Shown here: positions 48,962 to 52,291 of the stretch, one piece after another
Numbering within the stretch: position 1 is the first letter of the stretch
Layout of the letters: every line of letters begins with the position of its first letter
From: Desulfosudaceae bacterium
GTDB taxonomy: Bacteria; Desulfobacterota; Desulfobacteria; Desulfobacterales; Desulfosudaceae
Assembly: GCA_963674745.2 (NCBI GenBank)
Contig: CAXXDV010000001.1
Span: 1,632,001 to 1,696,000 of the forward strand
Length of the DNA: 64,000 nucleotides
Direction of reading: 5' to 3'
Notes under the pieces: model-generated
What the model saw: the letters and a program-made list of their open reading frames with translations, nothing else
Database searches by the model: none
Told to the model about the DNA's origin: nothing
Translations under genes and position numbers: made by a program

Positions 48962-51900
48962 ATGCTGGAGATGAACACTCAAACGGCTCAAACAATAAGT
49001 GACTATACTGTTGAAACAGGACCAAAAGACCGGTTAAAGGTTTTAAATATCCAACGTACCTGCGTTTATGACGGCCCCGGAATCCGGACAACCATTTTTT
49101 TTCAGGGTTGTGCCTTGCGATGTTTATGGTGCCAGAATCCGGAATCGCTTTCAATAAATCCTGATAAAGCCCCTGAAAAAAATTACGATACAGCCGAAAT
49201 CATGGAGGTAGTGTTACGGGATAAGGATTACTATGACGCAACCGGCGGCGGCGTCACATTAAGTGGCGGGGATCCGTTATTGCAGGATTCGGACAGTTTG
49301 ATCGAATTGATGACATTGTTGAAAAAAGAGCAGATTCTTGTCGCCGTTGAAACCGCGCTGCATGTCCCTGCCGCAAATATCGAAAAGATTGCCCCTTATG
49401 CCGACCTGTTCCTGGTCGATCTGAAAATTGTCGGAAATGATGATTTGCATAAAAAGTTAACAAAACAGGACAGCCGGCTGATTCACGACAATATTAAGCG
49501 ATTGCTCGACTTGAAAGCCAACGTGAAATTCCGCATGGTCATCGTACCGGGTTATAACGACGGTCAGGACCATATCCGGGCGGCAGCGGATTTCCTTAAG
49601 TCCATCGGGTATGACACCATTGAATTGTTGAAATATCACAATATGTATGAAGATAAGGCCAGGCGTCTGGGTCTGGTGCGCGAAGCCTTGAATATTACGG
49701 CCGAACAGAGCCTGGATGCGGTCAAGTCAGCGGTGGCTTTGTTCACCAGTCTGGGTATCCGGGCCGAATGCCTGGACCTGGCAGATTCACGGCATCAGGC
49801 GACGTTCACCTCGCGCGTGCATGAAATTCAGGATGCCATTCGAACCAGCGATCATCATTTATGCCTTGAAGTATCCCGATTGAAAACCGCATTTTACAAA
49901 AAAAACGGGTTTAAGAAACCGGCCCCCATCCATCGGGCCGAACGACTGTCGCATGTGTTGAACAACAAGCAGGTGATCGTTTATCCCCGGGAACTGCTGG
50001 TCGGCAACTTTACCTCGAAAAGAAAAGGCGGCCAGGTCTGGGAAGAGCATTACGGTATCCTCTTTACCTCGATTATCCACCAGATTCATCGCCAGAAACC
50101 GGTTTCCTTTCAGTGCTCTTTTCGCGACAAGCTGGATTTTTATTTTACAATATTTCCTTTCTGGGCCAAACGGTCCCTGATGGCCAAAGTCAACCGCAAG
50201 TTTTCCGACCTGATGCTGATGGTGGCGCGCTGTTCGGAAATGAATACCGGGTTTAACAACAATATGGCGGCCATCGCGCATTTTATCGTCAATTTCGACC
50301 GTCTCCTGGAACTGGGCACCGACGGCATCATTAAAGAAATTGAAGCCGTGCGCAACGAAAACCCCGATAAGGATCAGGACTTTTATGACGGTGCGATTAT
50401 CGCCTTGCGGGCGGTCGAGGATTTCGCGGCCCGTTATGCCGAGGCCCTTTCCGCTCAAAGCAGAGAAGAGGCGGACCCGGAACGCAGAAAAGAACTCGAA
50501 GAAATGGCCGAAATCTGCCGCTATGTCCCCAAAAATCCGGCCCGCACCTTTCATGAAGCCCTTCAGTCCATGACGTTTCTGCAGATTGCACTGTGCATCG
50601 AGTCCTATGAAAACGCGGTCTCCCATGGCCGCCTGGATCAGATTTTGTATCCCTACTACCAGCAGGACCTGGCCGACGGCCGGATTACCTACGAAAAGGC
50701 CAAAGAACTGCTGGCCCTGTACATTCTCAAAATGGATGAAGCCATCCTGGTTAATGACGGCGACACTTATCTTAGAATCGGCCGGCTGTTTGAAACCATG
50801 TCCACCGATCAGACGGTAACGGCCGGCGGGCTCGGCCGGGACGGCAAGGACGCCACCAACGATCTTACTTATATGCTGCTGGATATCTGTGAACTGCAAC
50901 CCTATGCCGTTAACATGACGGCCCGGATCCACGAGGACAGTCCGCCCGAATACCTGGAGCGGCTGGCGGAAGTATATATTAACGGTGCGCCCATGCCGGC
51001 CCTTTATAATGACGAACTGTATGTCGATACCCTGACAAAGCATTACGACACCACCGTGGAAGAAGCCAGGAACTACTCGATCATCGGCTGCGTGGAACCC
51101 AATGCCTCGGACAACCATTTCGGCAATACCGACTGTGCCAACATGAACCTGGCCCTGCCCTTTCTGCAGGCACTGAAAGGCGAGGAAAACGATTTGTGGA
51201 ATTTCGGGTTCGCCGAGCAGATGGATAGGCTGATCGCCAAGTTCATCGAATACACCTTTCGGGGAAACAACCGTTTTTCCCGGTTTGTCTCTTCAACACA
51301 CGCCAAGGCCCGCATCAACCGGAAAAAGAAACGCGCCCTGTCGTCACTGAATCCTCCGGCTGACATGGAAGATCTGCTGGAGCGCTTTCAGACCCGTTTG
51401 AATCATCTGGCATCGTCCATCCTGGCCGATCATCAGCATATCGAAGCTGTTATCCGCAAAAGTTTTCCCACGCCCCTGACCTCGGCCATGTTTAAAAGCT
51501 GTATCGAAAACGGAAAAGACGCCAACGACGGCGGCACGACGCTTAACAGCAGCGGTATCCAGGGGGTCGGGATTACGGATGTGGCGGATTCGCTTTTTGC
51601 CATTGATGAGGTGGTGTTTAAAAAACGGATGTATACCATTGACGACGTCATTCATGCCATTGAAAATGACTTTGAAGGAGAAAAAAACCGGGAGGTCCGG
51701 GAGGCATTGCTGGCCGTGAGAAAATTCGGCCACGATGATTCTGCGCAGGCCGTCGAGTGGGTCAACAAAACCCTTCAGATTTACATTAACGCATTAAACC
51801 AGGTGCCCGGCTGCCCGCGCAACGGCATTTACACCGCCGGCTACTATGCCCTGAACGTTAACGATGTTTACGGCGCCAAAACACCGGCCCTGCCTTCAGG

Positions 51901-52291
51901 CAGAAAAAGAGGCGTTTCGCTTGCAAACAGCATCACGCCGCATTATGGTATGGAATCAACGGATCTGCTGTCGTCCCTGAATTCCGTTGCCGGCGTGGAT
52001 TTTGTAAAATACGCGCCCAATGGCACGTCGACAACGTTTACGATTGATTCGGCACTGTTCCAGGGCCATGCCGGTGTTAAAAATTTGGCCGGCATATTCA
52101 GCACGTATTTCCGGAAAGGCGGGATGCAGTTTCAACCCAACGTGATCGACAAAAAGATTTTGCTGGAAGCCTATGAGAACCCGGAAAAACACAAGTACCT
52201 TCTGGTTCGCGTGGCCGGTTACTGCGCTTATTTTAATGACCTTTCCGACGAGTTGAAGCAGATTATTATCAACAGGACCTGCTACTCATAA
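48962..52291 (+). CDS. Fused glycyl-radical activating enzyme (radical SAM) and glycyl radical enzyme (PFL-like)
   Basis: Residues about 20-275: DGPGIRTTIFFQGCALRCLWCQNPES, GGVTLSGGDP, IVPGYND. Residues about 280-1109: RELLVGN, GRLDQILYPYY, IIGCVEP (C710), GITDVADSL, QFQPNV, LLVRVAGYCAYF (G1086). One uninterrupted frame. Confidence 0.93.
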   Translation: MLEMNTQTAQTISDYTVETGPKDRLKVLNIQRTCVYDGPGIRTTIFFQGCALRCLWCQNPESLSINPDKAPEKNYDTAEIMEVVLRDKDYYDATGGGVTLSGGDPLLQDSDSLIELMTLLKKEQILVAVETALHVPAANIEKIAPYADLFLVDLKIVGNDDLHKKLTKQDSRLIHDNIKRLLDLKANVKFRMVIVPGYNDGQDHIRAAADFLKSIGYDTIELLKYHNMYEDKARRLGLVREALNITAEQSLDAVKSAVALFTSLGIRAECLDLADSRHQATFTSRVHEIQDAIRTSDHHLCLEVSRLKTAFYKKNGFKKPAPIHRAERLSHVLNNKQVIVYPRELLVGNFTSKRKGGQVWEEHYGILFTSIIHQIHRQKPVSFQCSFRDKLDFYFTIFPFWAKRSLMAKVNRKFSDLMLMVARCSEMNTGFNNNMAAIAHFIVNFDRLLELGTDGIIKEIEAVRNENPDKDQDFYDGAIIALRAVEDFAARYAEALSAQSREEADPERRKELEEMAEICRYVPKNPARTFHEALQSMTFLQIALCIESYENAVSHGRLDQILYPYYQQDLADGRITYEKAKELLALYILKMDEAILVNDGDTYLRIGRLFETMSTDQTVTAGGLGRDGKDATNDLTYMLLDICELQPYAVNMTARIHEDSPPEYLERLAEVYINGAPMPALYNDELYVDTLTKHYDTTVEEARNYSIIGCVEPNASDNHFGNTDCANMNLALPFLQALKGEENDLWNFGFAEQMDRLIAKFIEYTFRGNNRFSRFVSSTHAKARINRKKKRALSSLNPPADMEDLLERFQTRLNHLASSILADHQHIEAVIRKSFPTPLTSAMFKSCIENGKDANDGGTTLNSSGIQGVGITDVADSLFAIDEVVFKKRMYTIDDVIHAIENDFEGEKNREVREALLAVRKFGHDDSAQAVEWVNKTLQIYINALNQVPGCPRNGIYTAGYYALNVNDVYGAKTPALPSGRKRGVSLANSITPHYGMESTDLLSSLNSVAGVDFVKYAPNGTSTTFTIDSALFQGHAGVKNLAGIFSTYFRKGGMQFQPNVIDKKILLEAYENPEKHKYLLVRVAGYCAYFNDLSDELKQIIINRTCYS

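Follow-up and report, generated by a model that had tools for sequence, protein, structure and literature searches.

The question raised by this locus is whether a glycyl radical enzyme (GRE) can be joined by nature to its own activase in one polypeptide and, if so, which reaction such an enzyme would catalyze. GREs are oxygen-sensitive, and the activase that switches them on is normally a protein of its own. The locus lies on contig CAXXDV010000001.1 of a Desulfosudaceae bacterium, in a stretch of 64,000 nucleotides that was analyzed as a whole and is referred to here as the window. A first-pass annotation, made from the sequence alone, had read one frame of the window as a complete radical-SAM activase followed by a complete GRE. 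The results reported here establish that the gene encodes a genuine single-chain activase-GRE. It is also probable that the protein activates itself, acts as a 1,2-eliminase and is controlled by a dedicated FadR-like regulator.

The fused frame and its conservation

The single 1109-residue frame of the first-pass annotation is present with an ATG start (Table 1), and its Cys loop IIGCVEP with C710 and Gly loop RVAGY with G1086 are as had been described. Pfam recognized Fer4_12 at residues 37-125, Radical_SAM at 45-202 (E 3.9e-17), PFL-like (PF02901) at 284-741 plus a second stretch (E 2e-140) and Gly_radical (PF01228) at 988-1092 (E 3.9e-21). A search of 5.8 billion proteins returned 1022 matches, and conservation was counted in the best 120 clusters. 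These are 1058-1139 residues long and 67-88% identical; Radical_SAM, PFL-like and Gly_radical were found together in all of them, the architecture for which the annotation had proposed a search, and Fer4_12 was found in 119.

The junction between the two enzymes was followed with query residues 230-340 by tblastn in 143 related loci. Sixty-three of the loci were kept from 161 stretches of GTDB species genomes encoding a relative (62-82% identity) and 80 from 367 such stretches of metagenome contigs (60-74% identity). The junction lay inside a single in-frame match in 140 of the 143 loci, and the match was full-length in 115 loci. Two loci stop before the junction. In the remaining locus (L008), on a 1.07-Mb contig of a metagenome-assembled genome (MAG), one extra base is present at residue 277/278, within the linker, and the homologous residues go on in the next frame. 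Two more copies are broken outside the junction (L053 and L055). Thus, the stop or frameshift with all homologs split that would speak for two genes was not found. Logan contigs from two runs of one sample, possibly the source of this DNA itself, covered positions 48900-52320 without a single difference or gap. In a sediment run (X3), contigs carrying a relative were present on 27 of 30 bins with no insertions or deletions, none of them bridging positions 49714-49929. The 63 genome loci belong to Thermodesulfobacteriota (18), Spirochaetota (15), Myxococcota (13), Bacillota (7), Bdellovibrionota (2), Pseudomonadota (1) and an Asgard MAG (1), with no phylum named for six.

Both halves retain their catalytic residues across the family. 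C50, C54, C57, H440, E550, N551, A552, D616, C710, E712, D724, Y962 and G1086 occur in 119-120 of the 120 clusters, the DGPG and SGG motifs of the activase are invariant, and GCVEP occurs in every cluster. In the Gly loop R, A, G and Y are each found in 119 clusters, the 120th having a gap, while the V is kept in 100 and replaced by I in 19; C1088 of the family loop RV(A)GYCA is likewise present in 119 clusters with a gap in the 120th. The linker, with a conservation of 0.75 in the 120-cluster alignment, is as conserved as the domains. The ratio of nonsynonymous to synonymous substitution rates (dN/dS; NG86, four pairs) was 0.08-0.15 for the activase, 0.08-0.20 for the linker, 0.02-0.09 for the GRE part and 0.10-0.17 for an insert at residues 745-798, ratios that are rough since dS was 0.8-2.7 in those pairs, a fifth pair being saturated. 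Purifying selection acts on the linker as well as on both halves. The core of the first-pass reading, a natural activase-GRE fusion conserved across phyla with both halves keeping their catalytic residues, is therefore upheld.

Active site, self-activation and rival readings

The closest matches of the GRE part in the PDB were A. fulgidus PFL2 (2f3o; 2e-103) and glycerol dehydratase (1r8w; 2e-99), with PflD (8yjo; 5e-90) and YbiW (8id7/8yjn; 1e-72) among the further matches. Active-site residues were read from the HMMER alignment to 1r8w. The glycerol dehydratase residues N156, H164, C433, E435, D447 and Y640 are kept in the fused protein as N432, H440, C710, E712, D724 and Y962, whereas H281, S282 and Y339 are changed to N551, A552 and D616. 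According to a 2026 review of the field, Cys433 of glycerol dehydratase abstracts hydrogen at C1, Glu435 deprotonates the C1 hydroxyl and His164 protonates the leaving C2 hydroxyl. The features of eliminases found in the fused protein are the CxE motif (C710-V-E712) and H440, which aligns with the acid proposed for the leaving hydroxyl and is present in 119 of the 120 clusters. Since the Cys/Glu/His set of glycerol dehydratase is kept, 1,2-elimination (dehydration) of a polar substrate is expected, and the GRE half is most likely a dehydratase-type eliminase. The residues of the pocket are rich in Asn, Asp and Glu. A pocket of this kind would be in keeping with a polyol, or with a substrate that carries an amine. 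The family differs from its sisters in the signature FNNNMAAIAH, SYENAVS, MSTDQT, GCVEPNASD(D/N)HFGNTD and YYALNVND, and in the insert of approximately 50 residues at 745-798, which is absent in all eight sister or outgroup rows inspected and has no aligned counterpart in the four PDB chains compared.

The cysteines within residues 1-330 are only those at positions 34, 50, 54, 57, 270 and 301. The activase model TIGR02494 matched the fused protein in two separate stretches, one at model positions 1-41 and the other at 102-282, leaving positions 42-101 unmatched, and no cysteine lies between residues 57 and 270. Since the gap in the model skips exactly the ferredoxin insert, together with the cysteine positions it indicates that the insert with its eight extra cysteines is truly absent, which bears out the earlier description of a C50-x3-C54-x2-C57 activase lacking it. 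The TIGR02494 score of 208.6 bits was over the cut-off of 174.35, while the PflA model TIGR02493 scored 152.5 bits, under its cut-off of 231.75. The cluster ligands of PflA are C29/C33/C36; both PflA and the activase of ribonucleotide reductase (RNR) are without a ferredoxin domain and yet active, and activases are specific for the Gly loop of the partner GRE (2026 review).

The number of GREs and activases in fusion-bearing genomes bears on which enzyme the fused activase serves. The genome of origin (G000) has 10 Gly_radical matches and four stand-alone TIGR02494 activases over the cut-off, each within approximately 6 kb of a GRE. Ten other fusion-bearing genomes have 1-9 Gly_radical matches each, nine of them 2-9. 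In G010, a MAG of 10.3 Mb whose completeness is unknown, the fusion is the sole Gly_radical match; all TIGR02494 matches at E up to 1e-10 fall within the fused frame, and the top TIGR02493 match outside it scores 59 bits versus 150 inside. Genomes G007 and G009 each have, besides the fusion, a single ordinary GRE whose own activase is encoded next to it. The fused activase most likely acts on its own GRE. Three other Gly_radical frames in the genome of origin, approximately 1000-1040 residues long, have an N-terminal extension of roughly 200 residues that matches no family (compare P0144, P0190 and P0208).

Several observations weigh against a self-activating eliminase. A minority of the activase-only open reading frames (ORFs), of 58-70% identity, are present on long contigs (P0272, P0281, P0284, P0290 and P0277, the last being L008), and may reflect halves that sometimes work apart, or frameshift errors. 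For five GREs in the genome of origin no activase of the TIGR02494 type lies nearby, and the fused domain might activate them. Since H281, S282 and Y339 are replaced, the protein is no simple dehydratase of glycerol or propanediol, and the GRE subfamily model TIGR01774 remained under its cut-off (507.5 vs 678.2). In the GRE fingerprint RVxG[FWY]x6-8[FL]x4Qx2[IV]x2R, as given in the 2026 review, RVAGY, L1094, I1102 and R1105 of the fused protein fit, while the Q position is K1099 in 119 of the 120 clusters, the 120th having a gap. The first-pass annotation had called the GCVE(P) loop typical of the eliminase/dehydratase class; the loop is not confined to eliminases, since the same source lists CxE also in the GRE isomerases HplG, YbiW and PflD, and the motif, common to both classes, is not decisive.

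Four other explanations were weighed against this background. An assembly or sequencing artefact that joined two genes into one frame could draw on the single-base frame change of L008, which falls exactly at residue 277/278, and on the existence of some short activase-only ORFs. It is scarcely conceivable and was rejected, since the junction is in frame in nearly all loci, which come from many studies and phyla, an independent re-assembly from two runs shows the same sequence over the whole gene and the linker is both conserved and selected. The N-terminal domain might instead be a decayed, non-catalytic scaffold, with a separate activase doing the work, as the missing auxiliary ferredoxin domain of most GRE activases and the change of the GGE motif to GGD could suggest. 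We regard this as highly improbable given the invariant cluster cysteines, DGPG and SGG, the low dN/dS of the activase, the activity of PflA and the RNR activase without a ferredoxin domain (2026 review) and the lack of another activase in G010.

An activase that works mainly or also in trans, as a general activase for the other GREs of the cell, would be consistent with the excess of Gly_radical matches over stand-alone activases in the genome of origin and with the multiple matches in nine of the ten other genomes. It is nevertheless a doubtful explanation: G010 has no other GRE, the reported specificity of activases for the Gly loop of the partner (2026 review) can be set beside a loop, RV(A)GYCA, that is invariant and the family's own, and a covalent 1:1 link would be odd for a shared catalytic activator. 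The alternative that the GRE half is an isomerase resembling PflD, YbiW or HplG, or catalyzes another CxE-dependent reaction, is unlikely to be correct, if somewhat less so. In its favor are the CxE motif of isomerases already mentioned, the occurrence of PflD and YbiW among the PDB matches and the sugar-type neighbors (MFS_2 and xylose-isomerase-like TIM barrels) at Bacillota-type loci. The nearest solved relatives, however, are PFL2 (2f3o), glycerol dehydratase and diol dehydratases, the equivalent of His164, proposed as the acid for loss of water, is nearly invariant, and aldehyde-handling neighbors, namely Fe-ADH and aldehyde:ferredoxin oxidoreductase, recur. A self-activating 1,2-eliminase under its own regulator is the reading that we favor.

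Regulator, operator and gene neighborhood

The gene directly upstream of the fusion encodes a GntR-family regulator in which Pfam recognized GntR (1.7e-19), FCD (5e-17) and FadR_C (2.4e-9; 37.8 bits vs a cut-off of 23.6). The top NCBIfam models (LldR, NanR, PdhR and FadR) were all under cut-off, and the closest solved relatives in the PDB are FadR proteins. A regulator gene occupies the same position on the same strand in 24 loci from 12 lineages. The FadR-type regulator to which the first-pass annotation had pointed is therefore a stronger lead than was claimed, with a recurrent position, an operator of its own and FadR proteins as solved relatives; an assignment as the FadR equivalog was rejected (NF003444, 90.3 vs 189; TIGR02812, 84.2 vs 249.2).

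The pattern TTGGT-N11-ACCAA of the putative operator has its sole exact match here, both in the window and in the 5.5-Mb genome of origin. Related sites were sought with TTGGT-N3-ATGGT-N2-TACCAA, allowing up to 2 substitutions, on both strands of 64 sources totaling 921 kb. The motif was present exactly once in 19 of the 64 sources, always at the fused-gene locus. In 18 of these its distance upstream from the fused gene is 769-1502 bp, with a regulator gene just upstream of the fused gene, and in L032, where no regulator gene is adjacent, it precedes the fused gene by 78 bp. In four of five other genomes the motif at the locus is the sole site with at most one mismatch, the locus site of the fifth having 2 mismatches. 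Neither the genome of origin nor these five contained a further convincing site, the 2-mismatch site on C3 being inside an ORF, and the regulon therefore yields no clue to a transporter or pathway. The operator, the FadR-like GntR regulator and the fused gene appear from these sequence patterns to form a dedicated and conserved regulatory unit, which is new here.

Table 1. Features of the fused gene and its upstream region (positions in the window)
Feature	Position	Strand	Remarks
Sigma-70-like promoter (TTGCAA, 16 nt, CATAAT)	48016..48043	+	consensus scan 9/12, pattern match alone; before regulator gene
Putative operator, near-palindromic, 21 bp, TTGGTATGATGGTAGTACCAA	48043..48063		GntR/FadR type TGGT...ACCA; abuts promoter -10 hexamer
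GntR-family regulator gene	48170..48889	+	239 residues; FCD/FadR_C ligand domain (Pfam)
Shine-Dalgarno-like AAGGA	48949..48953	+	8 nt before ATG of fused gene; read from sequence
Fused gene, activase joined to GRE	48962..52291	+	1109 residues plus stop; ATG start
Activase (radical-SAM) domain	49043..49771	+	residues ~28-270; PflA-like length, without ferredoxin insert
CX3CX2C cluster motif (C50/C54/C57)	49109..49132	+	aligns with PflA C29/C33/C36
Linker between both enzymes	49772..49861	+	residues 271-300
GRE part	49808..52288	+	residues 283-1109; Pfam PFL-like and Gly_radical
Cys loop IIGCVEP (C710 thiyl site, E712)	51080..51100	+	aligns with glycerol dehydratase C433/E435
Family-specific insert	51194..51355	+	residues ~745-798; basic stretch RINRKKKR
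Gly loop RVAGY (G1086 radical site)	52208..52222	+	Pfam Gly_radical

Neighbors within 4 kb were counted at 123 loci, grouped at 85% identity into 70 lineages, each cluster being named from one representative. No metabolic partner conserved across the whole family was found in this census. Besides the regulator, the recurrent neighbors were an MFS_2 transporter (six loci, six lineages), GDPD directly downstream on the same strand (four loci, four lineages), PI-PLC-X and a xylose-isomerase-like TIM barrel (each three loci, three lineages), Fe-ADH (nine loci, three lineages), aldehyde:ferredoxin oxidoreductase (AOR; six loci, three lineages), and acyl-CoA dehydrogenase and enoyl-CoA hydratase (each five loci, three lineages). 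A second type of AOR adjoins the fused gene in L011 and L033. In two Bacillota-type MAGs (L048 and L058; positions 189-16664) genes for a dockerin protein, two xylose-isomerase-like TIM barrels, a flavin adenine dinucleotide (FAD) oxidoreductase, the fusion and GDPD follow one another in this order on one strand, with MFS_2, PHP and PI-PLC-X genes on the opposite strand; judged by its gene content, the locus looks like one with a phospholipid head-group or inositol theme.

The patatin gene that the first-pass annotation had offered as a hint to the substrate is convergent and did not cluster with an ORF from any of the 63 genome loci; it was rejected as a partner. Approximately 900 bp between the fused gene and the patatin gene (52292-53197) contain no recognized gene. 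An ORF of 233 residues in this interval (52303-53004) matched no family in Pfam or NCBIfam, lacks a counterpart in the 63 loci and is probably not a gene. Rfam gave no match on 47800-53300 at E up to 0.1. Further out, a 792-residue ORF at 54237-56615 on the minus strand combines VKOR, DsbA/thioredoxin, FGE-sulfatase-like and AhpC/TSA parts, an unusual four-part redox fusion, and the minus strand at 46238-47821 encodes a 527-residue protein whose N-terminus is signal-like and whose two halves are internal repeats that each match MgtE_N.

Place among glycyl radical enzymes and comparison with known systems

The PFL-like barrel domain, the C-terminal glycyl radical domain and the Cys-loop cysteine C710 place the protein in the GRE superfamily. 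Every GRE model of NCBIfam, including the equivalogs HpfG (384 vs 1000), HypD (347 vs 1100), CutC (301 vs 1050) and HpsG, was under cut-off on the fused protein, and none of the 56 nearest representatives reached an equivalog cut-off; the fusion was therefore not placed within a characterized GRE cluster. The designation as pyruvate formate-lyase (formate C-acetyltransferase), which several sources use, was rejected on the basis of the single Cys in GCVEP and the TIGR01255 score (121 vs 994.2), the two-Cys motif being confined to PFL and TdcE according to the 2026 review. When clustered at 50%, the family is reduced to a single representative (P0043, 71% identity). Among full-length matches P0122 (40%) and P0125 (36%) come next, and the nearest unfused proteins of approximately 800 residues are 35-38% identical, leaving a gap between 60-88% identity inside the family and at most 40% outside.

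In a FastTree phylogeny of 102 rows the family was monophyletic (11 rows, support 100, stem 0.69), and together with all other fusions it formed one 16-row clade (support 98). A quick IQ-TREE run of 27 rows again recovered the family (support 100, stem 1.04) with P0123 as sister (support 97), and left its relation to the second fused group, the fusions with a ferredoxin insert, without resolution. The trees are compatible with either a fusion that predates the family, which would then have lost the ferredoxin insert, or a fusion that arose twice. The Asgard (Sigynarchaeum) copy L063 nests among Bacillota copies, and the copies of a Bacteriovoracaceae MAG and a Desulfomonilia MAG (L010 and L013) are near-identical, with end branches of 0.02-0.03, placements that point to horizontal transfer or binning error. 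The nearest representatives include a GRE with an N-terminal SCP2 lipid-carrier domain (P0139).

No description of a natural activase-GRE fusion was found in the full-text literature, subscription-only papers not being covered, and the words fused, fusion, bifunctional and tethered are absent from the accessible text of the 2026 field review. The family is apparently unstudied, and widespread in uncultured anaerobes. The ESM Atlas contains other fused clusters, among them one of 1133-residue proteins with Gly_radical, PFL-like and Fer4_12 that is labeled 75% Eukaryota (Bacillariophyta; phylum known for four members), a label which suggests, as a lead only, that activase-GRE fusions also occur in diatoms. 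Fusions of PFL with PFLA have reportedly been noted in some eukaryotes.

In the proposed mechanism the radical-SAM domain would bind one [4Fe-4S] cluster through C50, C54 and C57 and cleave S-adenosylmethionine, and the resulting 5'-deoxyadenosyl radical would abstract hydrogen from G1086 of the same chain or of the partner chain in a dimer. The glycyl radical would then generate a thiyl radical on C710, and C710, E712 and H440 would carry out a 1,2-elimination, most likely one that removes water from a hydroxylated polar substrate and yields an aldehyde or ketone. The fused gene is presumed to be co-transcribed with the gene for the FadR-like GntR repressor, which would bind the upstream 21-bp operator. 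More speculatively, and with a low likelihood, the fusion could be a one-gene module that, being self-activating at 1:1 without auxiliary clusters, moves freely between phyla including Asgard archaea and carries out an undescribed GRE reaction on a polyol or amino-alcohol head group set free from phospholipids. Hints of such a substrate are GDPD directly downstream in four lineages, PI-PLC-X, MFS_2, the FadR-like regulator and the acid- and amide-rich pocket.

A natural, conserved and covalent 1:1 pair could provide a ready-made single-chain object for cryo-electron microscopy and electron paramagnetic resonance of the activation step. The role of the activase ferredoxin domain is described as unknown in the 2026 review, which also reports that a 1:1 ratio of activase to PFL gives fast radical installation and faster loss. 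The family implies that an activase lacking a ferredoxin domain can be enough for a GRE of the eliminase type, and an enzyme fixed at 1:1 offers a natural test of the trade-off between installation and loss. The family is common in anaerobes of sediment, sludge and digesters, and its reaction may thus matter for anaerobic carbon turnover. Also new here, besides the regulator-operator unit, are a genome (G010) with the fusion as its only GRE and activase, and fused relatives that keep the ferredoxin insert.

Among known systems the activase half most resembles E. coli PflA (3c8f/3cb8) in its minimal radical-SAM-only architecture, PflA residues 13-213 being collinear in one stretch with residues 34-237 of the fused protein, and in its cluster and SAM motifs including DGPGIR, CX3CX2C and GGG...SGG(E/D). 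It differs in that PflA is a free protein serving formate lyase, and in that the fused domain scores better with the eliminase-type activase model TIGR02494 than with TIGR02493. The fusions known from databases only (P0122, 1095 residues; P0125, 1136 residues; P0132) have the same domain order and are the nearest neighbors at 36-40% identity, but they keep the eight-cysteine ferredoxin insert, have no 745-798 insert and show another active-site signature. In P0125 both loops are non-canonical, the Cys loop reading VGSCEL and the Gly loop LVPLSGN. A. fulgidus PFL2 (2f3o), a GRE of unknown function (2026 review), shares the single-Cys GCVE loop, the N-x-F...D pattern after it and, in place of the NGHSIS of glycerol dehydratase, the motif (Y)E(N/Q)A(V/I)S; its activase is separate, it has no 745-798 insert and its identity is well under the 60-88% of the family. 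The B12-independent glycerol dehydratase (1r8w) and the 1,2-propanediol dehydratases (5i2a and 9rco) share the Cys/Glu/His set, N432, D724, Y962 and the expected 1,2-elimination of water, whereas they depend on a separate three-cluster activase in place of a fused one without a ferredoxin domain, and no equivalog cut-off is reached by the fused protein.

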